A DNA stretch of 56,899 nt from a virus (lineage: Duplodnaviria > Caudoviricetes): positions 1 to 56,899 of the IMG/VR virus record IMGVR_UViG_3300010400_000024; one strand, written 5' to 3'. The notes beneath the pieces were generated by a model. It was given only the letters and a program-made list of their open reading frames with translations. It was not told the DNA's origin and ran no database searches. Shown one piece after another: positions 4,026 through 56,892 of this stretch; positions within the stretch are counted from its first letter, which is position 1; each line of letters starts with the position of its first letter. Made by a program: the position numbers and the translations under genes.

Positions 4026-4031
4026 TCCTGC

Positions 4032-4060
4032 TTGACTTTTGGTTCGGTTTGTGGTAGGGT
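4032..4060 (+). promoter_or_regulatory. sigma70/HrdB-type promoter with extended -10
   Basis: TTGACT-N17-TAGGGT, TG at the extended -10 position. Confidence 0.7.
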
Positions 4061-4080
4061 GCTCTAGCTTGACAGGCGCT

Positions 4081-4122
4081 AGGGAGAGTAGAAGGGTAGT
4101 TCCCTATAACACTACTCTCCCT
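4081..4122 (+). promoter_or_regulatory. 5' leader hairpin upstream of the exonuclease gene
   Basis: AGGGAGAGTAG/CTACTCTCCCT 11-bp stem, followed by AATCACACA motif at 4126. Confidence 0.55.
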
Positions 4123-4164
4123 CTTAATCACACACCCCGTCCAGAGTAGCGACGGAAGGAAAAT

Positions 4165-5472
4165 ATGAGTACAACAACTAATGAAATAGTCATCCCTAGT
4201 AAGTGGGATATCATACCCATTCATACTAGCGATAGAGAAACGTTTAAGAACTGTCGTCGTAGATGGGACTGGTCAAGTCCTGCTAGACGTAACTTGGTAC
4301 GCAAGGTTAGAGTTAGTGGCGTGATTATGCCGCTATGGTTTGGTACAGGAATTCACGTTGGATTGCAACGTTACTACAATCCTGTATTGAGTGAAGACCC
4401 TGTTAAAGTTTTTGAAGATTGGTACAACACTGAGTGGAATGGTGGTTACGTTCATTACAACGATCTAGATCAATACGCTGATCGTGACCCTAAGCCTCAT
4501 GGTATTGAACAATACTATGACGTAAACACAGGAATGTTCGTACCCGCTATGTGGTTCGTTAAGGGTCTAAGTGAACTTCTGCCTGATCCCGATGAAGAAC
4601 TGTTTGAAGAGCATAGGGTATTGGGGATTGGTATGCTCACCTTCTACAAGGACTACGCTAAACGTGAAGATAACTTCCGTGTAGTTAGTGTTGAGCAGAC
4701 ATTCAGTGTACCTATCCGTGATCCTAATGGTGAGATTGTTAAGATGGTAGATAGTAGGCGTATGCCTAAAGAGTGGATAAGTGATAAGCCTGCTGCTTAT
4801 CTAGGTATGCCGAAGGAAGTACATGCTAGAGGTAGGCGCGATGCTATCGTTCAGGACAATGAGACTGGTAAGTACGGTATTATTGACCATAAGACGGCAG
4901 CTAAGATTAACGATGACTACTTTAGGCATCTAGACTTGGATGAACAATGCACTACATATTTGTGGACTGGTGAGGAAGAAGCAAAGATTTACGATCGAGA
5001 GTGGAAATCACTTGACTTCATTATCTACAATGCTTTGCGGAAGAACTTTCCTAAACCCCCCACAATGCTTAAGAAGGGTACGCCTAGTCTCGATAAGACT
5101 AAGGAAAGCCCTACTGCTGAAATGTTTATGAAGTGCATTAAGGACAATGGGTTGGAAATGGTGTTAGAAGGTTCTGAGCAAATGCAGAACTACTACACCT
5201 ATTTGTTGGAGCAAGGTGACAAGCTATTCATTCAACGTGGTGCGCCTGGATTGCCCTATGTTACTCGTAACAAGGCACAGAGGGCTAATGCTGGTAGAAG
5301 GCTGTACTACGAAGCGATGGATATGCTCTACAATCCTAACATCTATCCTAACCCAACTAAGAACTACAGTTGCTTGAACTGCATCTTTAGGGCACCTTGC
5401 TTGATGGCAGAAGATGGTAGCGACTACGAAGCTATGCTAGAAGATAGCTATCAGGCTAACTATGATCGTTAA
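4165..5472 (+). CDS. PD-(D/E)XK RecB/Cas4-like exonuclease
   Basis: FKNCRRRW, FGTGIH, VEQTF, GRRDAIV, IIDHKT, C-terminal CLNCIFRAPC. Confidence 0.85.
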   Translation: MSTTTNEIVIPSKWDIIPIHTSDRETFKNCRRRWDWSSPARRNLVRKVRVSGVIMPLWFGTGIHVGLQRYYNPVLSEDPVKVFEDWYNTEWNGGYVHYNDLDQYADRDPKPHGIEQYYDVNTGMFVPAMWFVKGLSELLPDPDEELFEEHRVLGIGMLTFYKDYAKREDNFRVVSVEQTFSVPIRDPNGEIVKMVDSRRMPKEWISDKPAAYLGMPKEVHARGRRDAIVQDNETGKYGIIDHKTAAKINDDYFRHLDLDEQCTTYLWTGEEEAKIYDREWKSLDFIIYNALRKNFPKPPTMLKKGTPSLDKTKESPTAEMFMKCIKDNGLEMVLEGSEQMQNYYTYLLEQGDKLFIQRGAPGLPYVTRNKAQRANAGRRLYYEAMDMLYNPNIYPNPTKNYSCLNCIFRAPCLMAEDGSDYEAMLEDSYQANYDR

Positions 5473-6121: not shown

Positions 6122-6373
6122 GTGGTGGGAAGAATGACTAGTGTACCCCTAGACGTTAATGCGATCAAGGCACTACTTGGTAATGATGAGAAGAAGCGTC
6201 AACTACCTCCGCAAGTAGGGCCGATCAAGTGGTACGATAAGGAAATGCGTTGTGCTAGTAGAGGGTGTGGTAGTCCAACGTACATTAAGTTTCAAGGCAT
6301 ACCTAACTGCATGATACATACGCTTAGACTTGCTAACGAATTGATGGTGGAACATGAAATCGGTACTAGCTAG
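6122..6373 (+). CDS. hypothetical protein (CxxxxC ... CxxH)
   Basis: ORF in operon; start may be ATG 6135-6137. Confidence 0.55.
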   Translation: MVGRMTSVPLDVNAIKALLGNDEKKRQLPPQVGPIKWYDKEMRCASRGCGSPTYIKFQGIPNCMIHTLRLANELMVEHEIGTS

Positions 6374-10968: not shown

Positions 10969-11195
10969 TGGTTGAGGAAGTTAACCATCCAGAACATTAC
11001 GGTGGCGGAGATAACCCTTATGAGGTTATCAAGGTCATTCATGCACTTGGGTTGAACTTCAATCGTGGTAACGCTTTCAAGTATCTTGCTCGCGCTGGTA
11101 TCAAGAATCCAGCTACAGCAATAACAGATTTGCAGAAGGCTATCTTCTATCTCAACTATGAGCTAGAACTCTTGGAAGGGAAAAGAGAAGTCTAA
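10968..11195 (+). CDS. DUF3310 / T7 gp1.7-like nucleotide-kinase family protein
   Basis: VNHPEHY...GNAFKYLARAGIK...DLQKAIFYL. Confidence 0.8.
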   Translation: MVEEVNHPEHYGGGDNPYEVIKVIHALGLNFNRGNAFKYLARAGIKNPATAITDLQKAIFYLNYELELLEGKREV

Positions 11196-13531
11196 TGATG
11201 CGTAAACACCCACTAGCTAAGTGCGAAGAGTGCCCACTAGCTAAGAAGAAGATCGCTCCTACTAGTGGGCCTAAAGATGCTAAGTATGCGTTGGTTAGTC
11301 GTAGCCCTGGTAGGCACGATGTTAGTGATGGTTATCCATTTGCCGGCCCTAGTGGTAGAGTAGTTGATTACCTGCTTAAACAGAATGGACTTAAACGTGA
11401 AGAGATTATCACCACAAATGTCGTTTTATGTGAAACAGATGATCCACCTAAGGAAGCAATCGCAGCTTGCAAAGATCGTCTTACAAGTGAACTGCAAGCC
11501 GTTTCTACAATCATTGCAGCAGGCGCAGAAGCAGTTAAACTATTTACAGGCAAGACGATCGACAACGCTCGAGGTTTTGCTAACGAGCGTAACGGTAAGC
11601 GTATCATTGCTACTAACAATCCTGCACTAGTACTTCGTGATGCAGATAGCTTCCCTAATCTAGTAAAGGACTTTAAACGTGCGATCAACCCTCTTCCAAG
11701 GCCGGTACTTCCGAAGGTCACAATTATCCGCAACGTTGCACAAGCACAGAAGCTCCTTAAAGATTTGGTTGATAATCCGCCACCCTTACTTGCAGCAGAT
11801 ATCGAAGCAAGAGGCGGAACTTCTCATAGAGCTGAACTCGCGTGTATTGGATTCTCTGCAACTGGAGAAAGAGCACTCGTCTTTGGAGCAGAGGTTATCG
11901 GGGATTCAGCATGTTTTGAATTGCTCAAAACACTTCTTGAATCCAGAACAACTAAGTTCATATGGCACTTCGGAAAATACGACGTAAAGGCGTTGAGGTT
12001 TAATGAAATCAATGCTAGAATTGATCACGATAGTTACGCGCTTAGTATCGCCTGTGATGAAAGACCTGGTGTGCATAGTCTTGAGTATATGCTTATGGAT
12101 GAATTTGGTTGGCCTGATTACGAGCCTGAGTCAGTCAAGAAATTTAAAACGACAGGACAGATAAATGACCTCAATGAACTTTTCGAATACAACGGCTGGG
12201 ACGTTGCCGGAACCATGCAACTCTTCACTATGTTGCAACGCAGGGCTAAAGAGGACAAAGTCTATGAACTGTACGAAAATCACCTACTCCCTATCTATAG
12301 ATCATTCGTGGATATTGAGCTTCGTGGTTTTCATTACGACGTAGAAGAAGCTGCTAATCTCAGAGAAGCATATGTTATCCCTAAACTTTGGGAACTCAGG
12401 GATAAGCTTAGGCAAGTTGTAGGTCATGAGGGTTATAATCCTAACTCACCTAAGCAATCAGAAACGATCATTTATGATGAGTTGGGTCTTAAGCATCAGA
12501 TCAAGACGATGATGCAGGTTGACAAAACCCGCTCCACAGACCACTACATTCGGCTTGAAGTTATTGATGGTAGATTCAAGTGTAACCCTGGTAAGAGGGA
12601 GAAGCTTGTTGATTGGGCTACCAACATGGAGGTCTACAGCAAGATCAATAAGCAGAAAGGAACTTACATTGAAGGACTCATCCGTAAAGCTCTTGACGAT
12701 GGGAAAATCTACACAAGCTTCAAATTTGGAGCCGTCACTGGACGTACATCTAGTGAAAAACCGAATATTCAGAACATTACGCGGTCAGGGCATCATGGTA
12801 TCCCTTCCATGCGAACCCTCTTTAAGCCTAGTCCCGGTAACGTCATCGTTCAGGCCGATTACTCACAAGCAGAGCTAAGGTGTATCGCAAAGTTTAGTGG
12901 TGATCCTGAGTTGAACGCGATCTACATGGACAGCAGTAGAAGTCTGCATAAGGAACAGGCTCTAAGATTCTATGGAGAGGGTTATACCAAAGATCAGTAC
13001 GTGTACGCTAAGAGTATGAACTTCGGTATAACCTATGGTCAGGGGCCTGAGTTGTTTAGAGACTTGTACCAAGTACCTGTAGAAGATGCTGAAGGATACA
13101 TTGCTGCTTGGTGGGAACGATTCCCTGTTATCCTTGAATGGGTTGAAATGGTCAAGCAACAAGTAAAGACAGGGGTGGTGATAAACCCGTATGGACGAAA
13201 GCGAAGATTCCAGCTTATCACAAGAGAGAACAAATCAGCAGTTGAAAGACAAGCTGTTGATTTCCTACCACAATCTACTGCAAGCGACTTCACACTCGAA
13301 GCCGTTGTTGAACTCAACAAGCGTGGAGTACCAATCGTCGCGTCGGTACATGACAGTATCGTTGCAGATGTACCGGAGGATGAAGCGTATGATGTGGGGA
13401 GGATGATGAAGGAGGTTATGGAGCCTATACCTCGTAATCGTTTTGGATGGGAACTACCATTCCTCGTAGACGTAAGCATAGGTGAAAGTTGGGGAACAGT
13501 CGAAGAAGTAGAATTGGAGGTAGCTGCTTAG
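11195..13531 (+). CDS. polA: family A DNA polymerase with N-terminal family-4 UDG-like domain and 3'-5' exonuclease
   Basis: CEECPL..PFAGPSG..TNVVLC UDG-like; ADIE exo I; TGRTSS, ADYSQAELR (motif A), AKSMNFGITYG (B), VHDSIV (C). Confidence 0.95.
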   Translation: MMRKHPLAKCEECPLAKKKIAPTSGPKDAKYALVSRSPGRHDVSDGYPFAGPSGRVVDYLLKQNGLKREEIITTNVVLCETDDPPKEAIAACKDRLTSELQAVSTIIAAGAEAVKLFTGKTIDNARGFANERNGKRIIATNNPALVLRDADSFPNLVKDFKRAINPLPRPVLPKVTIIRNVAQAQKLLKDLVDNPPPLLAADIEARGGTSHRAELACIGFSATGERALVFGAEVIGDSACFELLKTLLESRTTKFIWHFGKYDVKALRFNEINARIDHDSYALSIACDERPGVHSLEYMLMDEFGWPDYEPESVKKFKTTGQINDLNELFEYNGWDVAGTMQLFTMLQRRAKEDKVYELYENHLLPIYRSFVDIELRGFHYDVEEAANLREAYVIPKLWELRDKLRQVVGHEGYNPNSPKQSETIIYDELGLKHQIKTMMQVDKTRSTDHYIRLEVIDGRFKCNPGKREKLVDWATNMEVYSKINKQKGTYIEGLIRKALDDGKIYTSFKFGAVTGRTSSEKPNIQNITRSGHHGIPSMRTLFKPSPGNVIVQADYSQAELRCIAKFSGDPELNAIYMDSSRSLHKEQALRFYGEGYTKDQYVYAKSMNFGITYGQGPELFRDLYQVPVEDAEGYIAAWWERFPVILEWVEMVKQQVKTGVVINPYGRKRRFQLITRENKSAVERQAVDFLPQSTASDFTLEAVVELNKRGVPIVASVHDSIVADVPEDEAYDVGRMMKEVMEPIPRNRFGWELPFLVDVSIGESWGTVEEVELEVAA

Positions 13532-46547: not shown

Positions 46548-46685
46548 ATGACGTTCCACGCTTTCAAAGGATGCGTCGCTTACGAGCTTCAAGTTGGTAA
46601 GCTAGTGTTCCAACTGTTCTACCAGAAGCAAAAGTATTTGCGCCGCTTCCATGTATGGGTTGACAGTTACGGAAGTTGGCGCTAG
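46548..46685 (+). CDS. hypothetical protein
   Basis: AAAGGA RBS before MTFHAFKG. Confidence 0.5.
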   Translation: MTFHAFKGCVAYELQVGKLVFQLFYQKQKYLRRFHVWVDSYGSWR

Positions 46686-46716
46686 AATACCTAAAACAAC
46701 GAACGAGAAAGGAACA

Positions 46717-46917
46717 ATGCCAAGCAAAGACAAAACACCCAACCGCACCTTGTCAGTTAACCTTGACAAGAGATGCGATTACACCAACTGTGCCGAGCAT
46801 GGTACTGTTAGCCGCACCATGCCGAACGGTACAACTAGAACACGCTGCATTGAACACCTAAACACCAAGCGAATCGACCCGAACGCCTACTTGCTCAAGT
46901 TTCTAAACCTCGCTTAA
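46717..46917 (+). CDS. hypothetical protein (CxxxxC...CxxH)
   Basis: AAAGGA RBS before MPSKDK. Confidence 0.5.
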   Translation: MPSKDKTPNRTLSVNLDKRCDYTNCAEHGTVSRTMPNGTTRTRCIEHLNTKRIDPNAYLLKFLNLA

Positions 46918-47364
46918 CAAAATCATAAGGGATTACGGAAGGGAGGTTAGATAAACCGAATATATCTTGGCTTAAGGCCGAATATATTAGTTAAACGTGC
47001 GGTTTTTACTTGACCGCTCAACATTATAACTAAAAAGGGGTAAACTTTACAACTTCATCATAAGTAAGTGCGCCGCTAGGCCGCATGGCTCCATCAGTTT
47101 ATGCAGTTTAGCAGTTATGAAGAAGGTTTTGCTTTCTAATAGTTACCAATCGGCCTATATATACGGTTTTATCGGGATTACGGAGCTAAGGGATTACTTA
47201 CTAATAGATACTAATCCATATACTACGTAATACACCTAAAGAACTCGACTCGTTAATATGCATAACGAGGTTTACAATCGAACGCCTGTTCCCCTAGCCG
47301 TAACTACGATTGCACAGAAAGGCCGGATATGCTAATCAGCTTTATCCCACTTACCATTATCTCT
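46918..47364. repeat. AT-rich non-coding region with short direct repeats
   Basis: GGGATTAC x3 (46929, 47174, 47190); CCGAATATAT x2 (46956, 46978). Confidence 0.55.
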
Positions 47365-47411
47365 GTAGTCTGCATAATGATCCAACTCGTAGGGATCATT
47401 AGGAAGTCTAC

Positions 47412-47440
47412 TTGACACCGATAGGAAGGGATGGTATGCT
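47412..47440 (+). promoter_or_regulatory. early promoter, probably giving a leaderless mRNA
   Basis: TTGACA-N17-TATGCT with TG extension; ATG 7 nt downstream (47447). Confidence 0.8.
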
Positions 47441-47446
47441 TTGTCT

Positions 47447-47638
47447 ATGAAAGAAATCAAGGCAGATGAGCATTACACGTACACCGATCTTATCGGTTGC
47501 ACAGTAACAGGAGCCGATACGATTAACTTGACATTGAAGCATCCCGATGGTAGAGTGTTTACCGTTGAAACCATCGACGATGGTTACGGATGGTCAGGCT
47601 TTAGTGTAATTCAAGTCGAAGGGAAGGAGGTGAATTAA
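47447..47638 (+). CDS. hypothetical protein
   Basis: ATG at the predicted +1. Confidence 0.6.
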   Translation: MKEIKADEHYTYTDLIGCTVTGADTINLTLKHPDGRVFTVETIDDGYGWSGFSVIQVEGKEVN

Positions 47639-47639
47639 C

Positions 47640-47936
47640 ATGGAGAATTTGACAGCAGCCGATATTACTGCTATTCTTGCGAATAGTCGTAATCGTGGTG
47701 GACAGGATCAGTTCCTTAAGGAGTTCGCCTCCTCAGAGGATATGTATCGTATCCTGAACGAGGTTCCTCAGTTTGCTGGTAAGACTAAGGAGCAGCTCGT
47801 TAGCATCAAGAATCAGCTTACGATGAAGGCTAAGAAGGCTGAGCTTACTAACATCAAGCTGGTCAAGAACGGCGATGCTATCCTGATCGTGAACACGGAT
47901 AAGCTCGTGATGGAGTCAGACGAAGACTCTGAATAA
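47640..47936 (+). CDS. small protein, paralog of 55698-56057
   Basis: AAGGAGGTGA RBS; shared RG..D..L.(E/D)F.SS, FAGK, (I/L)(V/I)NT and acidic tail. Confidence 0.75.
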   Translation: MENLTAADITAILANSRNRGGQDQFLKEFASSEDMYRILNEVPQFAGKTKEQLVSIKNQLTMKAKKAELTNIKLVKNGDAILIVNTDKLVMESDEDSE

Positions 47937-47953
47937 CGCAACAAGGCAAGGCT

Positions 47954-48059
47954 TTAGTTAGCTTGCCTAGAGTAGTAAGGCTATAGGTATGGGAGTTTCT
48001 CTACAACCCTAACTCCCTCAGTGTAGAGTATGCCTTACTACTCTAGGAAGGCTAACTAA
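47954..48059 (+). ncRNA. stem cassette 1 enclosing an H-type pseudoknot
   Basis: 28-bp stem with one G.A mismatch; inner GGGAGTT/AACTCCC; loop CTCTACA pairs with TGTAGAG. Confidence 0.75.
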
Positions 48060-48068
48060 GGAGGAATA

Positions 48069-48335
48069 ATGGATAACGAAATGATGCCCTCATACGTGTA
48101 CAACGAACACGATGATGAGCATACAGTTAAAGGCCCGAAGCCTATCCCTGAAGGGATGCATGAGTGCGATGGCTGTAATGGGTCAGGAGTTTACTACGGT
48201 AAAGGTGCTGTAGTGAATGGTAAGTTTGTCGGCTTTACTGGTAAGTGCTACCGTTGTGGTGGCAAAGGCCACCAAGATGATAAAGACCTGAAGCGTAATC
48301 GGTATTACGACAATCACGTAAGGAAGGTGTGGTAA
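48069..48335 (+). CDS. DnaJ-type zinc-finger protein
   Basis: CDGCNGSG and CYRCGGKG. Confidence 0.7.
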   Translation: MDNEMMPSYVYNEHDDEHTVKGPKPIPEGMHECDGCNGSGVYYGKGAVVNGKFVGFTGKCYRCGGKGHQDDKDLKRNRYYDNHVRKVW

Positions 48336-48553
48336 TGGATATCGTAACAGAAGATGGAGTGAAGTTGAAGGAAGGTGACAGGGCTTACGATTACTACAAC
48401 ATGAAGCCCGGTTACATTAAGCCTAACAGTATAACAATGGCACCAGATGCATGGTTCGACTTTGTGCATGATGATGGTTCGACCGATTTGCTTAACGGGC
48501 AAAGGATTTGTAGTGTAGAGTTTGCTAAGCGTAGAAGGTTTAAGGACGCATGA
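48335..48553 (+). CDS. hypothetical protein
   Basis: TAATG coupling. Confidence 0.6.
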   Translation: MDIVTEDGVKLKEGDRAYDYYNMKPGYIKPNSITMAPDAWFDFVHDDGSTDLLNGQRICSVEFAKRRRFKDA

Positions 48554-48759
48554 GTGGAGTTATCGACACCGACGGCACACAGTGGGAACGTTGTAACGGT
48601 TGCGGTGAGTTCGTGAACATGGACGACTTGCGCTACGAGCAGCCGAGTGAGAAGTTTAAGTACGGTAGGGACTTGTGCATTAAGTGTATTACTGAGACAA
48701 GCATAGCCGTTAAAAAATCCTACTTGACAGATAAGGGTTTACGTGCTATGCTTCTCTAA
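48550..48759 (+). CDS. zinc-finger hypothetical protein
   Basis: CNGC...CIKC. Confidence 0.55.
   Translation: MSGVIDTDGTQWERCNGCGEFVNMDDLRYEQPSEKFKYGRDLCIKCITETSIAVKKSYLTDKGLRAMLL
48724..48752 (+). promoter_or_regulatory. early promoter
   Basis: TTGACA-N17-TATGCT with TG extension. Confidence 0.8.
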
Positions 48760-48785
48760 GTAATCCAACCGGGAGGTAAGAGCAA

Positions 48786-49025
48786 ATGCAGGGAGTATAC
48801 GTAAGAGCTAGAAGGGTAGCAACTAAGAAGGCACTAAAAGAGGCAGTTGCGGAGAACTCGCACGTTGTCGCACTTGAGGCTACTAGCCTCTTTGGTAACG
48901 AGTACGACGGCTTCCTGTTTCAGGCACCTAACGGAGTTTACAACGTTGTCGGGCCTTGTCCTCACACAAACAGGAAGTGGTACGCAACGATCACAGTGAA
49001 GGATGGCGACGTTAAAGTCAAATAG
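48786..49025 (+). CDS. hypothetical protein
   Basis: GGGAGGT RBS. Confidence 0.65.
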   Translation: MQGVYVRARRVATKKALKEAVAENSHVVALEATSLFGNEYDGFLFQAPNGVYNVVGPCPHTNRKWYATITVKDGDVKVK

Positions 49026-49101
49026 CACTCACAGGCATAAGTGGGTGGTCACTAGAAAGGTAAGAAACACTGACCACCCACTTATCCGTAAGTGTGAGTG
49101 C
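49025..49101 (+). ncRNA. long hairpin at the start of RNA cluster 1
   Basis: GCACTCACA/TGTGAGTGC plus ATAAGTGGGTGGTCA/TGACCACCCACTTAT. Confidence 0.6.
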
Positions 49102-49140
49102 GGCGCGATTCAAAGACACCATAGAGGTAGATGGACAAGT

Positions 49141-49251
49141 TAGCTTGCATAGACTGTAGAGCGCATACCGAGCGAAAGGTGGCACTCATGGAGAGTTGGC
49201 AAAGTCAAGGGGTTCGATTCCCTCCACATTCTCTACAGTCTATGGAGGCTA
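49141..49251 (+). ncRNA. stem cassette 2 enclosing a mini tRNA-like RNA
   Basis: 21-bp stem TAGCTTGCATAGACTGTAGAG/CTCTACAGTCTATGGAGGCTA with G.G; GGGG-TTCGATT-CCCT T-arm. Confidence 0.75.
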
Positions 49252-49266
49252 GTTAGTCTCTATAAA

Positions 49267-49333
49267 AGAGAAAGTGCGAAAGCGTCGAGAGCTAGGAAAT
49301 CTCGGGGTGTATGGGCCTAGACACACTTTCTCT
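49267..49333 (+). ncRNA. multi-branch RNA with kissing loops
   Basis: AGAGAAAGTG/CACTTTCTCT; loops containing CTAGG and CCTAG. Confidence 0.6.
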
Positions 49334-49405
49334 AACAACATAATAGCTCACAGTTAAAGGAGGATAATAGCATCGGGTAAGGCTATTATCGTGCAGACGT
49401 TTTAC

Positions 49406-49566
49406 TAGTCTGCATAAGCTAGTAGGAGCAATTGCATAATAGGACAACAGTATAAAGCCTGCTCTGTCCCGGTAATGGTGAAGCAAACTACCGTAAAAGC
49501 CAGACGGTGTAAGTTGGTAGTTGAAAAGCCGTCATACCTTGCCGTCCTACTAGCTTATGGAGACTA
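49406..49566 (+). ncRNA. stem cassette 3 (~117-nt structured cargo)
   Basis: 22-bp stem TAGTCTGCATAAGCTAGTAGGA/TCCTACTAGCTTATGGAGACTA with G.G. Confidence 0.75.
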
Positions 49567-49587
49567 ATGAAAGGAGGTTAACGAAAA

Positions 49588-49713
49588 ATGGATAATAGAA
49601 ACCGTAATAACTCATGGGACGCAATTTGGCAGGATGCAGGTAAAGGCTTTAGATGGTTCTGCGGTATCCTGTTGTTTGTACTGTTCATGCATTCATGTGC
49701 AGGTGTAGGCTAA
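49588..49713 (+). CDS. small membrane peptide (41 aa) between RNA cassettes
   Basis: AAGGAGG RBS; MDNRNRNNSWDAIWQDAGKGFRWFCGILLFVLFMHSCAGVG. Confidence 0.65.
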   Translation: MDNRNRNNSWDAIWQDAGKGFRWFCGILLFVLFMHSCAGVG

Positions 49714-49865
49714 CTAGTCTGCATAAGCTAACGGGTGATATAGGAACGATAAGCGGGGCGAAAGCCTAGAATCTAGTGTCACTACACACTGGACGTGAAT
49801 CGTTCGCCGGTAGTGCGGAAAGAGGGTAATACGTACCCTCCATCCGTTAGCTTATGGAGGCTAGT
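49713..49865 (+). ncRNA. stem cassette 4 enclosing a kissing-loop RNA
   Basis: 25-bp stem with G.G; loops CACTAC and GTAGTG complementary; GAAA tetraloop. Confidence 0.8.
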
Positions 49866-49869
49866 AAAA

Positions 49870-49919
49870 CCTAGTGCTTAAGTGGGCCAGCCCATTAAAG
49901 GGTCAACACTTGTACTAGG
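49870..49919 (+). ncRNA. hairpin following cassette 4
   Basis: CCTAGTGC..AAGTG/CACTT-GTACTAGG. Confidence 0.45.
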
Positions 49920-49982
49920 ACGCATGGATGGCGATAAGCTAGCCTCCAAGAACTTTAATCACACACAAGCAGGAGAGTTGCT

Positions 49983-50225
49983 ATGATAGACCTATGCGAC
50001 AGAAACCACGAAGGACTTGTGGTGAAGTTGTGGTATCAAGAACCCGACGAAATCACTATTACCGTTAGGGACGAAAGGAACGGTGAGAACTTTGCACTCG
50101 AAGTTGATCCGAGAGATGCTCTCGACGCGTACTACCACCCCTTTGCTTACAGAGATAGAGAGGCAAGAGTTGGTGTACTGGCCGAAGGTGATGCTAAGCG
50201 CAACAACGGCGATTGCCTGCCGTAA
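49983..50225 (+). CDS. hypothetical protein
   Basis: AGGAG RBS; ALDAYYHPFAY. Confidence 0.7.
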   Translation: MIDLCDRNHEGLVVKLWYQEPDEITITVRDERNGENFALEVDPRDALDAYYHPFAYRDREARVGVLAEGDAKRNNGDCLP

Positions 50226-50255
50226 AATCGAAGAGCTAGCAGAAAGGTGTAAAGC

Positions 50256-50450
50256 ATGAATGATGGCCCACCACAGATAAGAGCAGTACCACCGATGAAG
50301 CACTACACAATGGAGATTACGCTAGTTGATAGCGGTCTACCATACACTGATAAAGAGGACGCCGAGAAAGCCGCTAACGAGTGGGCTAAAGAACTTGCTA
50401 GTGGTGAAAACTGCATGGTAGGTAAAGTAGTAGTAAGAGAAGATGCCTAG
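50256..50450 (+). CDS. hypothetical protein
   Basis: ORF in early operon. Confidence 0.55.
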   Translation: MNDGPPQIRAVPPMKHYTMEITLVDSGLPYTDKEDAEKAANEWAKELASGENCMVGKVVVREDA

Positions 50451-50604
50451 ACTAACTAGGATAAAGCTGCTAGAGTTGTGGCATCATGAATACAACCGTA
50501 TGTTGGCTAAGTATGGTGATCCGGTTTACGCCGTAAAACAAGCTGATGCAGCTTGGTCAGAACCGATAGCTCTCAGCAGCATATTAAGGAGTAAATATGT
50601 ATAG
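50443..50604 (+). CDS. hypothetical protein (53 aa)
   Basis: MPRLTRIKLLELWHHEYNRM...; overlaps both neighbours. Confidence 0.45.
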   Translation: MPRLTRIKLLELWHHEYNRMLAKYGDPVYAVKQADAAWSEPIALSSILRSKYV

Positions 50605-50788
50605 ATACGAATGTCTAGCTTACGTCTGTAAAGAGAATAACGTCTATTGGTCTGAAACGTATGTGAACAATAGAACGTTGGGGCGTAACATTAAAACTCG
50701 TGAAGAAGAAATGACTAAACTTCATAGGGAGCATTACCCTATTGAGTCTCATAACCACATTGTAAAGCGGAGGAAGGTTAAATCATAA
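50597..50788 (+). CDS. hypothetical protein
   Basis: AAGGAG RBS. Confidence 0.55.
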   Translation: MYRYECLAYVCKENNVYWSETYVNNRTLGRNIKTREEEMTKLHREHYPIESHNHIVKRRKVKS

Positions 50789-51054
50789 TGTCAGCAGATA
50801 ACGGCTTCGCTATCCTGTCACTAGATGATAAGCCTGAGTATTGGGGCATCTTCTACTATAGTGGTGAAACTGATAGCACTACTGCTTTGTCTAAGGATGC
50901 TAGAGATGTACTAGCTAATCCTATCACGGCTATCCTTAAAGCTCATAGGATGCAGAAGCAGGAGAGAACTGAGTATGGCGTCTATGTTAGTGAAGAATGT
51001 CTAACGGCGGCTTTTCTCACAATGTCAGATTACCTATCAAGTGGGATAGCATGA
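50788..51054 (+). CDS. hypothetical protein
   Basis: MSADNG...TEYGV; TAATG coupling. Confidence 0.6.
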   Translation: MSADNGFAILSLDDKPEYWGIFYYSGETDSTTALSKDARDVLANPITAILKAHRMQKQERTEYGVYVSEECLTAAFLTMSDYLSSGIA

Positions 51055-51212
51055 CTATGTACCACATAACAGGGGTAACGTTCTACGGCATAAGGTTTAA
51101 GATTCGCACTACTAACCGTTTGCACGCTGAAATGATTAACGTGCATAGAGGCACCTTGTGGCAAGTAGATAGGAACGGCAAGCGAAAGATTCTAAGGAGG
51201 TATGGCTGGTAA
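51051..51212 (+). CDS. small basic hypothetical protein
   Basis: ATGA overlap. Confidence 0.5.
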   Translation: MTMYHITGVTFYGIRFKIRTTNRLHAEMINVHRGTLWQVDRNGKRKILRRYGW

Positions 51213-51373
51213 TGGCTAAAAGGATTGTACTAGTCTTTGATTACTCTGATGCCACTGATGATGCAGGAACACAAAAGTTCCTAGAAGATGTGGCTAGAGA
51301 TTTGAACGAAGACTTAAGACATTACGTAGGGTATCAAGGATGGAGGGTAGAAGATGACAGTAGCTCAGATTAG
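51212..51373 (+). CDS. small acidic hypothetical protein
   Basis: AAGGAGG RBS; TAATG coupling. Confidence 0.5.
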   Translation: MAKRIVLVFDYSDATDDAGTQKFLEDVARDLNEDLRHYVGYQGWRVEDDSSSD

Positions 51374-51539
51374 AAAGATGGGTGAGCTTACTGGCGAATT
51401 GGGTGATGCTAAGAAGGTCAACTTCAGTCAGTGGACTCATGGTAAGTTTATCTCTTTGACATTCATGAAACTTAATGGGGAGGTATGGCGATACGATATC
51501 TATCCTAATGGTGAATATGAAGGAGAACAAAGTGTCTGA
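51354..51539 (+). CDS. hypothetical protein
   Basis: GGAGG RBS. Confidence 0.55.
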   Translation: MTVAQIRKMGELTGELGDAKKVNFSQWTHGKFISLTFMKLNGEVWRYDIYPNGEYEGEQSV

Positions 51540-51615
51540 ATGGATAATCAGAATCGTAGTTGGATTCATTATCTTTGTATGGGTATTCTTCGTCGTAGTG
51601 GAGGCTTTGTCATAA
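51532..51615 (+). CDS. single-TM peptide (27 aa)
   Basis: AAGGAG RBS, GTG start; SEWIIRIVVGFIIFVWVFFVVVEALS. Confidence 0.5.
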   Translation: MSEWIIRIVVGFIIFVWVFFVVVEALS

Positions 51616-51788
51616 TGACACTAGAAAAATATGAAGTGTTCATTAAGGGTAAGGATAAGATGATTCAAAGTTGGACATTGTTCTTTGAAGCTGAGAACTT
51701 TGCTCATGCAGAGGAACAAGCTCAAGATTACCTAGACGATAACGATGAAATCGTCAAGATAACAAAGGACTACAAAAATGCCGGTTAA
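51615..51788 (+). CDS. hypothetical protein
   Basis: GGAGG RBS; EAENFAHAEEQA. Confidence 0.55.
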   Translation: MTLEKYEVFIKGKDKMIQSWTLFFEAENFAHAEEQAQDYLDDNDEIVKITKDYKNAG

Positions 51789-52029
51789 GTTTGATAGACA
51801 GCATTACAACGCATTAGCTAAGCTCTTTAGGTACACTATAAGGGAGGCAGCGAGTGTTGACCTAGATGAGCGTAATGGTGTCATTAGATTTGCGATGGAA
51901 TGCACTCAATACTTCAAATTGGGTGATCCATTGTTTGACCCTATTCAGTTTCTAGATGCATGTACGCCCGAAGAGGATAGAGAGATTAACAATCTAAGCG
52001 AATTGTGGGTGAATGATGTGGGAAATTGA
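51778..52029 (+). CDS. hypothetical protein
   Basis: RQHYNALAK...FDPIQFLDAC. Confidence 0.6.
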   Translation: MPVKFDRQHYNALAKLFRYTIREAASVDLDERNGVIRFAMECTQYFKLGDPLFDPIQFLDACTPEEDREINNLSELWVNDVGN

Positions 52030-52324
52030 TAAAGACTACATTAACACTGACCCTGGTGATACAAATAGGGTAGGTGTTAAGGGTGAAACGGTTAACGTAG
52101 GATTTGGTCATATCATGCCTGAGTGGATTGACCTACCTAGTGACGCACCAGTGGTAAGGTTTCACATGAAGGATGATGATGGTCAGGTGTATTACGGCGG
52201 TTGGCTGCACAACGATGATGAATGTCTGAATCAGGATGCAGCTCTGCATTACGGTAAGTACGATGCTGGTTGTACTACCATCGAAGTCATGATTGACGGA
52301 AAGTGGAGGCAGGACATTGGATAA
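52013..52324 (+). CDS. hypothetical protein
   Basis: FHMKDDDGQVYYGG. Confidence 0.6.
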   Translation: MMWEIDKDYINTDPGDTNRVGVKGETVNVGFGHIMPEWIDLPSDAPVVRFHMKDDDGQVYYGGWLHNDDECLNQDAALHYGKYDAGCTTIEVMIDGKWRQDIG

Positions 52325-52589
52325 CGAGGTAATTGTAGAGAAGATGAAGGTAGCACTCGCAAGTGTAGCTGGTGATGCTCATGCGTTTATGAATCAGTAC
52401 GACATTAGTGCTGAAAACGTTATCGTTATCAACTTTCACTATGTTGAGAAGGCTGTTGAGAGGCTAATGAAGCTTTCTGACGATGATGATGGTTCAGAAC
52501 TAGTAGTGATTCTTCAAGTACTAGCAGCAGCTAGCTTTAGTACTGGATTCCTTCTAGGGTATCAGTTTGCCAATGACAGAAAATCTTAA
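52293..52589 (+). CDS. hypothetical protein
   Basis: ORF in operon; start may be TTG ~52317. Confidence 0.55.
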   Translation: MTESGGRTLDNEVIVEKMKVALASVAGDAHAFMNQYDISAENVIVINFHYVEKAVERLMKLSDDDDGSELVVILQVLAAASFSTGFLLGYQFANDRKS

Positions 52590-52734
52590 ACAATACACAG
52601 TGGTTATGTATCATCCTCTTGACCTTGCTAAAGCTGTCATAGCGGAAGAAGGTGTAAATGAGGAAGATGTAAGGGCTAAGATAGAGTTGAAGTACAGTAA
52701 GTGGGTAATCGAAGAGATTAAGGAGGCAAAGTGA
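52573..52734 (+). CDS. hypothetical protein (53 aa)
   Basis: MTENLKQYTVVMY...; overlaps neighbours. Confidence 0.45.
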   Translation: MTENLKQYTVVMYHPLDLAKAVIAEEGVNEEDVRAKIELKYSKWVIEEIKEAK

Positions 52735-52877
52735 CAGTTAAGTTTAGCCATCGTCCTGCAACTGCACCTATGGGTAGGTTTGGCGGTTGTTGGCAACTTA
52801 AGGTTGGTATCCAAGCTTCTCGTTCTACCGTACTTATCAGTCTACTTATCGCGGAGCTGAAAATCAGCTTTAAGTGA
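52731..52877 (+). CDS. hypothetical protein (48 aa)
   Basis: AAGGAGG RBS, GTG start. Confidence 0.45.
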   Translation: MTVKFSHRPATAPMGRFGGCWQLKVGIQASRSTVLISLLIAELKISFK

Positions 52878-52907
52878 GTTAGCGCAAATATCCGATCCAA
52901 TATCGGC

Positions 52908-52936
52908 TTGACATTTACTAGGAATTATGATAGGCT
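52908..52936 (+). promoter_or_regulatory. early promoter
   Basis: TTGACA-N17-TAGGCT with TG extension. Confidence 0.8.
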
Positions 52937-53145
52937 GGTCTAGCCGTCCTAATCACACAGGGGGTCTTATTGCTCTTTATGACTCCACCGCAGTTAGCAG
53001 CGATAGCGCAACTGCACAAGGATAAGACAGAAAGTATCACATTGCAAAAAGCACATGGTTTAGCCGGTTATCTTCAGATAACCTTTTGGCTAGATGATGG
53101 CAAATGGCACGACTTCTTACTAACACCAGAAGGAGAGATAGAGTA

Positions 53146-53304
53146 ATGGAAGAACAGCTTAAGGCTGAGTTGGTAGAACAAGTTAAGTCAATGAAGTGGA
53201 ATGCAGACATTGTCGTCTTGAATGACGATGGTGAAGAACTTGAAGTTACCGATGTAAGCTTTGACAATGAGCTGGACAGAGTAGTGATTCAGGTGGAAGC
53301 CTAA
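53146..53304 (+). CDS. small acidic hypothetical protein
   Basis: AAGGAG RBS. Confidence 0.55.
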   Translation: MEEQLKAELVEQVKSMKWNADIVVLNDDGEELEVTDVSFDNELDRVVIQVEA

Positions 53305-53305
53305 G

Positions 53306-53503
53306 ATGGGAGTTGTTGAAGATTTCTACAAGTCTGGTGATTTAGGCTTGGACGTATCAGCAGGGATAAGTCCAGAAGCAGTTGAAGCGTTGTTTAATGA
53401 ACTTGCAAATTTCCCTGATGTTATCCTAGCCGTTAGTGGCACCACAGTAATCTTGTATAACAAGAGGTATGTAAAGGTGGTGGTAAAGGACAATGGAAGT
53501 TAG
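53306..53503 (+). CDS. hypothetical protein
   Basis: ORF in operon. Confidence 0.55.
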   Translation: MGVVEDFYKSGDLGLDVSAGISPEAVEALFNELANFPDVILAVSGTTVILYNKRYVKVVVKDNGS

Positions 53504-53804
53504 ACTTAACAAGAGTTGGAACTGTCTATCTGCTGGTACTAGACTTCTAGTGCTAGCTGATGATAACGTTGAATGGGAAAAGCCAGGTGATCCAATTAGT
53601 CATGGCTTTATCACTGTAGAACTACTACACTCTAGTAAGAAACTGTTGGACATTGAGCCTCGTATGGCTTACCCGTTCGATATCGAGTATGACTACGTTA
53701 CTGAGTGTAGGCCGACAGTTGAGTACGTTCCTTCAGAAAACCGCCACAAGCGTAGAACTCTTAAACGTAATGAGTATGAACTCAAGCAAGCGTTGGGAGT
53801 TTGA
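53493..53804 (+). CDS. hypothetical protein
   Basis: AAGGA RBS. Confidence 0.6.
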   Translation: MEVRLNKSWNCLSAGTRLLVLADDNVEWEKPGDPISHGFITVELLHSSKKLLDIEPRMAYPFDIEYDYVTECRPTVEYVPSENRHKRRTLKRNEYELKQALGV

Positions 53805-53814
53805 GAGGTAAGTT

Positions 53815-54402
53815 ATGAAGGCAAGTAGCCTATGGCCGGGAACACACTATGCCTACCAGTATGGACTTGGTAGAGGTAGAGAACTTCCTTTGGACGCCAG
53901 AAGGATTGTGGTGCTTAGACTTGAAAGTACCCCTATCCCTGGTGGTAGAAAGTCTCGCACAGAAGCACTCGTAATGTTTATGGATGAAGAAGGTGGTGCT
54001 ATCACTGAAGGACGTGATAGTAAGCCTAGAATGGTAAAGGCACCTGATATCATCAACTTTTGGGACGATTACGAAATGGAGCGAGATGCTCTTAAGGAAG
54101 AGAAGAGGATTAAACGAGAGAAAAGACTACAGCAAGAAGCTCAATGGAAGAAAGAACGTGACGAACGTTGGGCTATTGAAGCGGTAGCAACGTTTATCTA
54201 TCGTGCGGCCGAAAGTATGCGTAGGTGGGAACGTGAAAGGCATCTACGAGAAGCTGCACAGATGGAAGAAGCACGACAGAGAAGGATTAAGAACGTTCTC
54301 ATTACAAGAGGCTTAACACGAGAAGCCATTGTAGTGAACAACGGCAGCGTAATACTACAACGGGACGATGTTGAAAGGTGGTTAGGTATTCAGAATGACT
54401 AA
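53815..54402 (+). CDS. hypothetical protein with charged coiled coil
   Basis: GAGG RBS; E/R/K-rich helix. Confidence 0.65.
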   Translation: MKASSLWPGTHYAYQYGLGRGRELPLDARRIVVLRLESTPIPGGRKSRTEALVMFMDEEGGAITEGRDSKPRMVKAPDIINFWDDYEMERDALKEEKRIKREKRLQQEAQWKKERDERWAIEAVATFIYRAAESMRRWERERHLREAAQMEEARQRRIKNVLITRGLTREAIVVNNGSVILQRDDVERWLGIQND

Positions 54403-54673
54403 TCCATTGAGTATGGATTTCATTAAAGCACTAGTGAAGAAACAGGAGTATAAAGAAGTGGGACATAAGCCCATCTTTACAAGCGAAGAGTTGAAGTTGA
54501 TTAAGACAACGATCAAGGCTGGACAGCAAACACTTCGTATGCGTAATAAGAACTTCCGAGTTAGGTACTTCATCTGGAAGAAAACCGAGTGGGTTACGGT
54601 TAAGCCTGTTATGGGCTTTGTCCCGATGTTCTCTTCACCAAAGGATGATGTACTAAGAGCGGAGATTCTGTAA
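54395..54673 (+). CDS. hypothetical basic protein
   Basis: ORF in operon. Confidence 0.55.
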   Translation: MTNPLSMDFIKALVKKQEYKEVGHKPIFTSEELKLIKTTIKAGQQTLRMRNKNFRVRYFIWKKTEWVTVKPVMGFVPMFSSPKDDVLRAEIL

Positions 54674-54674
54674 C

Positions 54675-54947
54675 ATGGACTTGACAGTTAGACAAGAGAA
54701 AGTAGTTAGACTCTTGTGGCGTCATAGCAGGTGGGACTCAACAAGGGTGATAACTCAAGACTTGAACATTAGGGAAGATTATCGTAGTGGTGTGTTTACG
54801 ATCGGTCAAGTAAGGTCTATCCTAGCGAGACTTGAGAATCGTGAAATTGTTGTACGCAGAGGTTTTCCTGCACGATGGCAGTTGACTACACATGCAAGAA
54901 ATCATCTACTCGCTAAGGGGTTTAAAAGTGACTCAAAAACCACTTGA
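54675..54947 (+). CDS. winged-helix DNA-binding protein
   Basis: LTVRQEKVVRLL...QVRSILARLENREIVVRRG...WQLT. Confidence 0.6.
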   Translation: MDLTVRQEKVVRLLWRHSRWDSTRVITQDLNIREDYRSGVFTIGQVRSILARLENREIVVRRGFPARWQLTTHARNHLLAKGFKSDSKTT

Positions 54948-55224
54948 TGTTGGTTCGCTTAAAGGCTTGTTGGCTAAAGAAGAAGAACGTGAAAAGAAAG
55001 AAACAGCCAACAAAATTCGTAATAAGAACTTCCCTACTGAACCGAGGGATTTCGATACTTGGTTTAAGCTACCTACTAGATTCGCTGACTGTCACCAGGC
55101 AGATGATTGTATTGATCCAAGGGTTGATAGGACTAAAACTGGACATACAATGGTAGCGATGGTAAATGGTAGTGAGATTTGTCGCTACTGTTTTCTTGCA
55201 GGAGCTAACAAAGTTTCTACATGA
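54892..55224 (+). CDS. hypothetical Cys-containing protein
   Basis: CHQADDC...ICRYC. Confidence 0.55.
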   Translation: MQEIIYSLRGLKVTQKPLDVGSLKGLLAKEEEREKKETANKIRNKNFPTEPRDFDTWFKLPTRFADCHQADDCIDPRVDRTKTGHTMVAMVNGSEICRYCFLAGANKVST

Positions 55225-55679
55225 AAGCGATTATCGGTCATATCGAGAAGGTCTACAATGCAATATTAGATCAAGCAACTGTTGAAGTTATTGATGGTAA
55301 CGAGTTGCATATTTACCGAGGGCAGATATCTAAGCTGTATGCTACCCTTGGTATTGCACAATCGTACTACACTGAGATATTTCAGCAGTTGGACGATCAG
55401 GGTTGTATCGTTATGCTTCAACGTGGTAGTAAAGGGGTAGACAGTGTTATCGTATGCCTCCATGAGCCGTCTGAGGCCGGATACCAGCCCCCGCGAGGGC
55501 CGAGGGACTTGACAAGCGCCGAGGACTTTGCTAATATGATCGAGGAACACAGATTGCTCGTTAAACTAGTAGGAGGTATGGATATCGTAGAAGCGTTTAG
55601 AGAGTTCGATAAGAGGTTGAAGCGCCTAGAAGATATACCGGGGCGCGAGAAGTTCAGTAAAACACAAACCGAAGTATAA
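55221..55679 (+). CDS. putative winged-helix protein
   Basis: ISKLYATLGIAQSYYTEIFQQLDDQGCIVMLQRG. Confidence 0.55.
   Translation: MKAIIGHIEKVYNAILDQATVEVIDGNELHIYRGQISKLYATLGIAQSYYTEIFQQLDDQGCIVMLQRGSKGVDSVIVCLHEPSEAGYQPPRGPRDLTSAEDFANMIEEHRLLVKLVGGMDIVEAFREFDKRLKRLEDIPGREKFSKTQTEV
55509..55537 (+). promoter_or_regulatory. early promoter (intragenic) for 55698 and RNA cluster 2
   Basis: TTGACA-N17-TAATAT with TG extension. Confidence 0.75.
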
Positions 55680-55697
55680 CTAAGGAGAGAATAGAAA

Positions 55698-56057
55698 ATG
55701 GCACAGGCAATTGACGCTCAGATGATTCAGGCACTTCTGTCGAAGCAGAAGAGTCGTGGTGATTACGATGCAGACCTTCGTGATTTCCTTTCGTCTGGTA
55801 ACGCTGGTGTAGAGATCGACCTGTCGAGTGGTCGTTTTGCTGGTAAGCGTGCGAAGCAGGTTAAGACTGGCTTCGACAATGCCCGTAAAAAGACTAACGA
55901 TCAGGGTCTTGTTCATCCGGGTGGTACTCTCGTTAAGGTCATTGCTATCAATGACAAGAACGATGATGAGGGTAATCCGAAGGGCGAGCAGGAAGAGCAT
56001 GTTTATCTCATCAATACTGCTCTGCTCGGTAGTGAAGAGGACGAAGCCGCAGCGTAG
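55698..56057 (+). CDS. small protein, paralog of 47640-47936
   Basis: AAGGAG RBS; shared motifs and acidic tail. Confidence 0.75.
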   Translation: MAQAIDAQMIQALLSKQKSRGDYDADLRDFLSSGNAGVEIDLSSGRFAGKRAKQVKTGFDNARKKTNDQGLVHPGGTLVKVIAINDKNDDEGNPKGEQEEHVYLINTALLGSEEDEAAA

Positions 56058-56112
56058 TATAGTAAGTTCCCTTGCAAAGGGAGAACATGGAGAGGGGCAC
56101 GAAAGTGCCTCT

Positions 56113-56209
56113 TTCCATATTAAGCCTCTGAAAAACGGTGTGATTAGTAAATCAGTTTGAACGGTAGCAAGTAAATACCGTTACGGTCACTCAGAGGCTT
56201 AATATGGAA
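56113..56209 (+). ncRNA. stem cassette 5
   Basis: 19-bp stem TTCCATATTAAGCCTCTGA/TCAGAGGCTTAATATGGAA; inner hairpins TGATT/AATCA and AACGGTA/TACCGTT. Confidence 0.7.
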
Positions 56210-56245
56210 GTATCCATAAAGTACGTAGCCGAAGTATAGGGCTAC

Positions 56246-56345
56246 CGGCACAGTGGGCACCTTAAGCAAGTGCGATAGTAGTGTTACGGGATAGTTACTC
56301 TGTAACAGCTTAAACTACTAGCGGGTTCGACTCCCGCAAGTGCCG
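56246..56345 (+). ncRNA. tRNA-like pseudoknotted RNA with canonical T-arm (not a decoding tRNA)
   Basis: CGGCAC/GTGCCG closing stem, GCAC/GTGC arm, TAGTAGT/ACTACTA arm, GCGGG-TTCGACT-CCCGC. Confidence 0.7.
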
Positions 56346-56373
56346 TTGTTATCACACAAGCAAAGGAAAAACG

Positions 56374-56454
56374 ATGAATGATCTACTAGATGTAATCATG
56401 TTCTTCGTAACAGTGGGAACGATTGTTCTCTTTGTTGTAGCTGTAACGCATTAA
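56374..56454 (+). CDS. single-TM peptide (26 aa)
   Basis: AAAGGA RBS; MNDLLDVIMFFVTVGTIVLFVVAVTH. Confidence 0.55.
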   Translation: MNDLLDVIMFFVTVGTIVLFVVAVTH

Positions 56455-56539
56455 CTCAGGTAAGATGGTATAGGATTCGATATCATATAAAAATCCTCAA
56501 AATTTTGAATTTGGAATCTGGTTAAAGAGGTTTAGAGAT

Positions 56540-56568
56540 TTGACAAGCGGTTAATTTTGTGCTACCCT
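56540..56568 (+). promoter_or_regulatory. promoter driving an apparently non-coding transcript
   Basis: TTGACA-N17-TACCCT with TG extension; AT-rich upstream element. Confidence 0.7.
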
Positions 56569-56575
56569 TATGGGT

Positions 56576-56673
56576 GCAGCGTCCCGGTTGGAAAGGCTGC
56601 TAGGAGGGTTAGCGTGGAACGTTCTTGTGTGAGGCGTATGAGCGTTAGCCCTCCTACTAAATAATCACACAAG
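56576..56673 (+). ncRNA. hairpin RNA whose loop is complementary to the TCACACAAG motif
   Basis: TAGGAGGGTTAGCGT/GCGTTAGCCCTCCTA; loop CTTGTGTGA versus TCACACAAG at 56665. Confidence 0.6.
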
Positions 56674-56679
56674 GCAGGC

Positions 56680-56785
56680 GTTAATGTTGCTTAGACTCCC
56701 TACTCTACACTTTGACCCTAAAGGGCTTGCGGCTAATAGGGATGAGATGGCGCATAGTGTAGAAGGGAGTCTAAGGAACATTAAC
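56680..56785 (+). ncRNA. stem cassette 6
   Basis: GTTAATGTTGCTTAGACTCCCT..TCTACACT / AGTGTAGA-AGGGAGTCTAAGGAACATTAAC with G.G. Confidence 0.75.
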
Positions 56786-56841
56786 TCCGTCGCAAAGTTA
56801 ATGTTCCGTAGCGAGACTACCCCCCGTAGTCTCTCTCCCCC

Positions 56842-56892
56842 GGCGGGTAAGATAGAGGTTCCCCTGAATCCATCTTACCCGCCAATTTTATT
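56842..56892 (+). terminator. probable intrinsic terminator
   Basis: GGCGGGTAAGAT/ATCTTACCCGCC followed by AATTTTATT. Confidence 0.55.

Follow-up and report, generated by a model that had tools for sequence, protein, structure and literature searches.

Two paralogous small early proteins of an uncultured soil phage, with a predicted nucleic-acid-binding core and structured RNA behind their genes

Introduction

The early operon of phage T7 yields a polycistronic transcript that is cut by ribonuclease III (RNase III), and a stable 3' hairpin is left on the upstream message. Phage phi29 p6 is an abundant early histone-like DNA-binding protein with an acidic tail, lambda N is a disordered RNA binder with an arginine-rich motif, and in the bacterial smpB-ssrA arrangement the protein partner is encoded beside its RNA. 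Known targets of RNase III also include the early mRNAs of Bacillus phage SP82, as cited in PMC4838370. The present analysis deals with two small early proteins, named A and B here, of an uncultured soil phage (IMG/VR record IMGVR_UViG_3300010400_000024). The whole record of 56,899 nucleotides (nt), which is 97% complete, was analysed and is referred to as the window.

47640-47936, + strand: paralog A, 98 amino acids (aa), isoelectric point (pI) ~5, acidic tail ...ESDEDSE
55698-56057, + strand: paralog B, 119 aa, pI ~5, winged-helix-like model, tail ...SEEDEAAA

The best overall reading, to which we give a probability of about 0.5, is that A and B are abundant early nucleic-acid-binding paralogs whose messages are ended by RNase III-type hairpins. 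Its firm basis is the paralogy itself, the conservation of both copies, the promoters, and the structured sense-strand RNA and RNA genes behind B. The locus resembles those of T7 and SP82 in its host-polymerase early promoters and in small early genes separated by long hairpins. Unlike in those phages, the stems also enclose tRNA-like and other RNAs and share a purine-purine mismatch motif, and cleavage is here predicted from sequence. A and B are also similar to p6 in being ~100 aa long, early, presumably abundant and acidic at the C-terminus. However, they have no sequence relation to it (no Pfam match), their predicted fold is likely different, and DNA binding is a prediction for them.

Paralogy and conservation of A and B

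Both genes are open frames at the coordinates reported in an earlier note on this DNA, which was made by a model from the letters and a list of reading frames; the acidic tails and the strong ribosome-binding sites described there are also present (Shine-Dalgarno sequence AAGGAGG for A and AAGGAG for B). The N-terminus of A reads MENLTAAD and that of B MAQAIDAQ, and an in-frame stop codon lies just 5' of the B ATG.

The relationship of the two proteins had been proposed from an alignment by eye and is confirmed. BLASTP aligned them over nearly their whole length with 28 of 107 positions identical (E 0.002), and the motifs FAGK and LINT/IVNT are common to both. The hhalign comparison of the A-family and B-family alignments, which the earlier note had named as a check, gave a probability of 95.5% (E 1.5e-8) over 53 N-terminal columns, so that significant pairwise homology is present. 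The B-family profile, when searched against 1.84 billion cluster representatives, also retrieved the A-type representative P0162 (E 4.7e-7), which in turn matches A itself (phmmer, 8.2e-18) and the A-family profile (1.5e-21).

Conservation of the pair was followed in 11 related virus records, the window included. Two copies, 7.5-9.6 kb apart, occur in seven of them (G000, G003, G005, G006, G007, G009 and G010), and all five records that are at least 92% complete carry both; the four single-copy records are fragments (33-59% complete). It is thus practically negligible that A and B are unrelated and that their likeness and their neighbours arose by chance. The BLASTP value by itself is marginal, but the profile-profile comparison, the cross-retrieval and the retention of the pair in seven records refute such an explanation. 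A and B are true, ancient paralogs, and the pair is old and conserved.

Promoters and expression signals

The pattern TTGACA-N16-18-TAnnnT was scanned for genome-wide. Eight consensus promoters were found on the + strand, all within 46660-56540 (at 46660, 47412, 47528, 47649, 48724, 52908, 55509 and 56540), as against a single one on the - strand across the genome. A TG-extended -10 is present in seven of the eight + strand sites. The following features bear on the two genes and on the RNA block behind B.

47412-47440, + strand: promoter TTGACA-17-TATGCT with TG-extended -10, 228 nt before A, heading a unit of the 65-aa gene and A
47441-47638, + strand: 65-aa early gene directly 5' of A, with a weak PHROG 8994 match
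47528-47556, + strand: promoter TTGACA-17-TAGAGT, inside the 65-aa gene and 112 nt before A
55509-55537, + strand: promoter TTGACA-17-TAATAT, inside a 152-aa gene and 189 nt before B
56540-56568, + strand: consensus promoter inside the RNA block, with no open reading frame (ORF) behind it

The TTGACA promoters claimed for both genes are therefore present, as exact TTGACA-N17-TGnTAnnnT sequences. A promoter also precedes the B-type start by 149-278 nt in 18 of the 21 related loci with at least 300 nt of upstream sequence (TTGAC[AT] allowed), and each A-type copy of the relatives by 71-404 nt. A second promoter lies between the double hairpin described below and the RNA genes in 10 of 20 loci. 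This placement suggests that each paralog is served by a separate host-RNA-polymerase transcription unit, in which it is the promoter-proximal ORF. A strong ribosome-binding site together with a stable hairpin right after the stop would be a layout for high early expression, and we infer from these signals that A and B are probably abundant. The site at 47649 falls within the first codons of A.

RNA structure downstream of the two genes

Of the genome's local inverted repeats, nine among the 15 longest are located in 47.3-49.9 kb and 56.1-56.8 kb, where the following structures were found.

47952-48061, + strand: long hairpin starting 16 nt after the A stop, with 28-nt arms, one G.A mismatch and a 50-nt interior (z -5.8)
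49026-49870, + strand: non-coding cluster of long-stem cassettes (49026-49096, 49134-49258, 49400-49572 and 49713-49865)
56066-56118, + strand: two hairpins after the B stop, 56066-56086 and 56087-56118 (14 base pairs (bp), GAAA loop), the first starting 9 nt after the stop
56113-56209, + strand: long perfect stem starting 56 nt after the B stop, with 19-nt arms and a 59-nt interior (z -6.1)
56601-56883, + strand: further structured RNAs, to the record end (56601-56656, 56677-56788, 56810-56836 and 56842-56883)

A stem within about 60 nt of each stop, as previously described, thus exists behind both genes. The further claim that each paralog sits directly in front of an RNA-cassette cluster is half right. 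B is followed at once by the hairpins, the long stem and an RNA block, in which ~840 nt are without a convincing gene, whereas A is followed by a single hairpin and four small genes, the RNA cluster being 1.1 kb away.

Folding of the 200 nt after each stop was scored against mononucleotide shuffles. Near-duplicate loci (L005, L006, L008, L013, L027, L033 and L040) were excluded from the folding counts and the A-type copy of G006 from the count of structure behind the stop. The z-score in the window is -6.9 behind B and -6.9 behind A. Among the B-type relatives a z of -5 or lower is reached by 13 loci in a first set of 16 and by all 8 examined in a more distant subfamily (21 of 24 together). 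Of 34 control windows, placed behind the stop codons of other upstream ORFs of these loci, 2 reach this value (median -1.1). The A-type relatives gave -5.0, -6.8, -2.4, -1.6 and -2.6, that is, strong structure in two of five. Co-occurrence of homologs and stems, which had been suggested as a check, therefore holds for the B-type genes but not generally for the A-type ones. In 17 of 18 cases the sense strand is the more stable one, the mean difference from the complement being 10 kcal/mol. This bias fits structure at the RNA level, although the G-rich + strand would favour it in any case.

The 3' arm of the hairpin at 47952-48061 extends into the Shine-Dalgarno sequence of the gene at 48069, and that of 56087-56118 overlaps the 5' arm of the next stem. 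An arrangement of the latter kind recurs within the first 130 nt behind most B-type genes of the 24 related loci, as a GC-rich hairpin whose 3' arm serves again in the longer stem directly behind it. The shared arm predicts two competing foldings, and the arrangement is kept despite differing sequences. For an exact X, X-complement, X pattern, 25 loci were each compared with 200 shuffles; no more than one shuffle matched it in 10 of these loci and no more than ten did in 19, the script scoring any such triple and not just the two hairpins.

The stems, of 19-31 bp on the sense strand, are long enough for RNase III (about two turns or more of double-stranded RNA). A single central mismatch, G.G or G.A, is common to five of the nine stems examined (47952-48061, 49134-49258, 49400-49572, 49713-49865 and 56677-56788). 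It stands in the context YUG/CAUA...UAUGGAG, flanked by 12-16 paired bases on its upper side and 11-15 on its lower side, and gives these stems a phage-specific signature. Processing of the RNase III type and stabilisation of 3' ends are the most likely roles of the hairpins and long stems. On the simplest reading, a predicted RNase III-type cut at the long-stem base would keep the first hairpin as a protected 3' end of the B message, and the hairpins at 56066-56118 are likely its 3'-terminal stabiliser. Such processing would also separate the protein message from the RNA genes on the B transcript, which in relatives are tRNA-Leu, tmRNA (transfer-messenger RNA) and tRNA-like genes. A 26-codon hydrophobic micro-ORF with a Shine-Dalgarno sequence is found inside the RNA block, at 56375-56455.

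RNA genes behind B and their neighbours

56245-56345, + strand: tRNA-like RNA with a perfect T-arm of the tmRNA/tRNA type and a 5-bp acceptor-like closing helix; no ARAGORN or Rfam call

ARAGORN and Rfam, the latter at gathering thresholds, gave zero calls on the whole window. T-loop motifs number two in the window as compared to 0.09 expected by chance. The 3' half of the T-loop element at 56324 is nearly identical in two related loci, L021 (~2590-2685) and L023 (~1050-1145); in a consensus fold of 56245-56345 with these two, only the T-arm holds up, with a slightly unfavourable covariation term. Another T-arm motif, at 49211-49221, lies in the interior of the cassette at 49134-49258, which by its sequence resembles a tRNA, degenerate or unusual, held in a 28-bp clamp.

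Other RNAs occupy the same place in relatives. A tRNA-Leu(UAA) is present behind B in L026 (1847-1930), L028 (836-917) and L029 (1737-1819), and another in the cluster after the A-type copy of G003 (L016, 6260-6343). L035 carries at 4024-4320 a full tmRNA with a G3.U70 acceptor (79 bits against an Rfam gathering score of 47; E 5e-29). The setting is like that of smpB-ssrA, as a small protein gene stands directly 5' of a tmRNA in L035 and of tRNA-like RNAs whose T-arm is of the tmRNA type in the window, L021 and L023. Unlike SmpB, the A/B family is acidic rather than basic and gives no SmpB sequence match, and a tmRNA was found in one of the 12 loci scanned. Phage tmRNAs as such are already known (PMC1475703).

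When the RNA regions of the window were compared by blastn with a set of the related loci, no nucleotide conservation was detected. Together with the differing RNA content, this suggests that the RNA cargo is variable while the protein gene is constant. Nearly all loci with enough upstream sequence share the gene order 110-aa Cys-rich protein, 152-aa protein, B and RNA; the first two genes lie at 54892-55679 in the window and neither belongs to a Pfam family. As this order represents a single syntenic lineage, the adjacency and co-occurrence of B and RNA are not independent evidence of a partnership.

The protein family

The B-family profile matched at least 179 clusters (50% identity) at E <= 0.001 and 78 at E <= 1e-10 among the 1.84 billion representatives, and the listed matches are 75-165 aa long. 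At E <= 0.01, B has 29 homologs (B counted in) of 71 candidates and A has 5 of 9. No Pfam or PHROG family was found above cut-off for A or B, the match of A to DUF2913 being below it; none of 95 family members matches PHROG, Pfam gives stray matches in one or two of them, and a sequence-profile search of the PDB gave no match at E <= 1. Judged by these absent matches, this is an undescribed family of small early phage proteins.

The tblastn search of P0001, P0072 and P0104 against 50,697 deposited phage genomes gave no match, and the window has no DNA-level match to deposited phages. The family alignment A1, searched with the pattern used, revealed no copy in 185,579 species genomes, and hence no prophage copy and no host was found. 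P0039 and the alignment A2, searched in viral contigs, recovered no loci. Two possible third, very diverged members of the family are a 75-aa ORF with an LLIN motif (L004, 4684-4911) and a weak profile match (E 0.0016) in G009 at 6170-6346.

About 29 of 150 listed representatives begin with an Arg-rich peptide (MARQRR type) that leads into a Thr/Asn/Ser-rich linker; the long form in G005, which includes the Arg-rich extension, bears a proper Shine-Dalgarno sequence (example locus L018, 3002-3366). These members resemble lambda N in such a start and in being early and promoter-proximal. The family differs from lambda N in its folded domain, and a boxB-like element was not identified. A and B are without an N-terminal arginine-rich motif, for which reason a lambda N-like antiterminator was rejected. 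At the other end, an acidic stretch is closed by a final -AA in 20 of the 29 close B homologs and in 40 of the 150 listed representatives, while the A-type tails lack this end. We infer from composition, which would give ~1%, that such ends are far above expectation. This suggests selection on the C-terminus, perhaps for an ssrA-like degron.

Predicted structure

The model of B has a predicted local distance difference test (pLDDT) score of 74.9 with a 29-sequence alignment, and of 88.0, with a predicted template modelling (pTM) score of 0.70, with 95 sequences. Its elements are helices (H) 7-16 and 22-33, strand (E) 37-40, a short helix 45-47, helix 52-63, strands 79-88 and 94-106, and helix 107-118. 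In the model, the order H-H-E-(short H)-H-E-E is that of a winged helix after one extra N-terminal helix. Helix 52-63 occupies the position of the recognition helix, is basic, and falls in the best conserved segment (~50-65 of B), where K56, G58, D60, N61, A62 and R63 are invariant among close B homologs. Residues 36-70 have a net charge of +4 in both paralogs, and both ends are acidic.

Comparison of both models with 48,161 chains by VIA-align gave best Z values of 6.3 and 6.0, to the Stn1 winged helix (root-mean-square deviation 2.3-2.6 over 69-70 residues), which lie within background, as unrelated models typically reach Z 7-8. R3H domains scored 5.7 and 5.3, and many winged-helix or small RNA-binding domains 3.4-4.5, among them the RNA binders KhpB (4.0), RPP20/25 (4.2) and SelB (3.4), all below background. 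The models are like the winged-helix domains of transcription factors, the La motif and SelB in the order of helices and strands and in a conserved basic third helix (chains at Z 3.4-6.3). They are unlike them in having no sequence-family membership, scores within background, an extra N-terminal helix and an acidic tail. As no structural match exceeds background, the fold is called winged-helix-like by topology only. The structure prediction proposed earlier has yielded a well-scored model with a winged-helix-like order of elements, but not a fold match.

An R3H domain was rejected, as no Pfam R3H match exists and the conserved R63 and H73 of B are 10 residues apart and not 4. SmpB was rejected for want of a PF01668 match; it is not in the 50 best structural rows either, an absence that does not exclude its fold. 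The label SmpB/trans-translation on one BFVD row (E 0.03) was probably assigned automatically to a member of the family and gives no support to SmpB. The predicted homodimer of B scored 0.01 (mark 0.42), which counts neither for nor against a dimer.

Function of A and B

The winged-helix-like core and its conserved basic helix fit a nucleic-acid binder, and on the evidence of the model A and B most likely bind nucleic acid. They would do so via the alpha/beta core and the basic helix, with an acidic C-terminal tail, and either DNA, in an architectural or regulatory role, or RNA may be the target. The two proposals of the earlier note, a protein partner of the RNAs and an abundant nucleoid-type protein, hence both stand. 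The paralogy, the expression signals and the position of B are supported. RNA binding in particular is weakened by the lack of a significant fold or sequence match, the variable cargo, the single synteny and A-type copies that often have no stem behind them. As a whole, that note was mostly right, firmly so for paralogy, promoters and the position of B and weakly for that of A.

Several observations weigh against the interpretation of A and B as abundant nucleic-acid binders with RNase III-processed messages. Both proteins are acidic overall (pI ~5). Foldseek searches of the PDB and BFVD gave no match at E <= 0.001, a fold search of the ESM Atlas gave none above background, and VIA-align gave none over it. 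The folding scores rest on shuffles of the mononucleotide type, and the + strand is G-rich, which favours G.U pairing anyway. Operator-like repeats were not seen by eye around the eight promoters. The public sequencing runs containing the phage are three soil DNA runs, with no RNA runs listed.

If the proteins act on RNA, B and perhaps A could be a dedicated partner that binds structured RNAs from its own transcript as chaperone, protector or processing cofactor, in the manner of SmpB with tmRNA or La with pre-tRNAs. This is suggested by the B-type gene lying directly 5' of structured RNA, with which it is predicted to share a transcript, in 21 of 24 related loci as well as in the window, and by the recurrence of the shared-arm two-hairpin module behind B-type stops. 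The Arg-rich extension of some representatives, with its good Shine-Dalgarno sequence in G005, and the weak resemblances to R3H, KhpB, RPP20/25 and SelB point the same way. We nevertheless consider it unlikely, as the common gene order may make the adjacency plain synteny and the cargo differs among relatives (tRNA-Leu, tmRNA, tRNA-like or of no known type). Moreover, strong structure is present behind only two of five A-type relatives, the sequence of the recognition helix, compared by eye, does not change along with the motif at the stem base, and A and B themselves are without the extension. A more specific form appears less likely still. In it, B-type proteins would be phage RNA-maturation cofactors of a new kind that bind the conserved two-hairpin switch after their own stop and control RNase III processing and release of the tRNA, tmRNA and tRNA-like RNAs, the -AA tail giving them a timed, ClpXP-dependent lifetime.

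Another explanation dispenses with nucleic-acid binding altogether. The first genes behind early phage promoters are often host-directed, and the promoter-proximal position of A and B fits a host-takeover or anti-defence factor, whose acidic -AA tail would engage a host machine, for example as a substrate or decoy of ClpXP via an ssrA-like end. The frequency of -AA among the close B homologs and listed representatives and the acidic tails common to both paralogs agree with this. The ssrA degron, however, ends in LAA, while the residue before -AA is here usually E or A and not L. The A-type tails have no such end, and the basic helix rather than the tail is the most conserved part, which makes a host-directed role doubtful, about as improbable as a dedicated RNA partner.

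The abundant-binder reading and its rivals concern a family without a name, a Pfam or PHROG model or a deposited-phage homolog, which, in a widespread lineage of ~56-kb soil phages, holds two early slots that seem to be among the most strongly expressed. Its conserved unit of promoter, small protein, double hairpin, second promoter (in half of the loci) and RNA genes may serve as a compact model for the coupling of a protein and stable RNAs on one transcript. A protein that acts on these RNAs would be a new factor of RNA maturation; otherwise the family would represent a new abundant early protein directed at DNA or at the host.

Genome context

Replication genes (SNF2 helicase, PD-(D/E)XK nuclease, primase and family A polymerase) occupy 1-16 kb on the + strand, and structural genes (Mu-like portal, tape measure) 16-46 kb on the - strand. 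The region 46.6-56.9 kb, again on the + strand, contains the small early genes. The family A DNA polymerase (11195-13531) carries an N-terminal domain of the uracil-DNA-glycosylase (UDG) superfamily.

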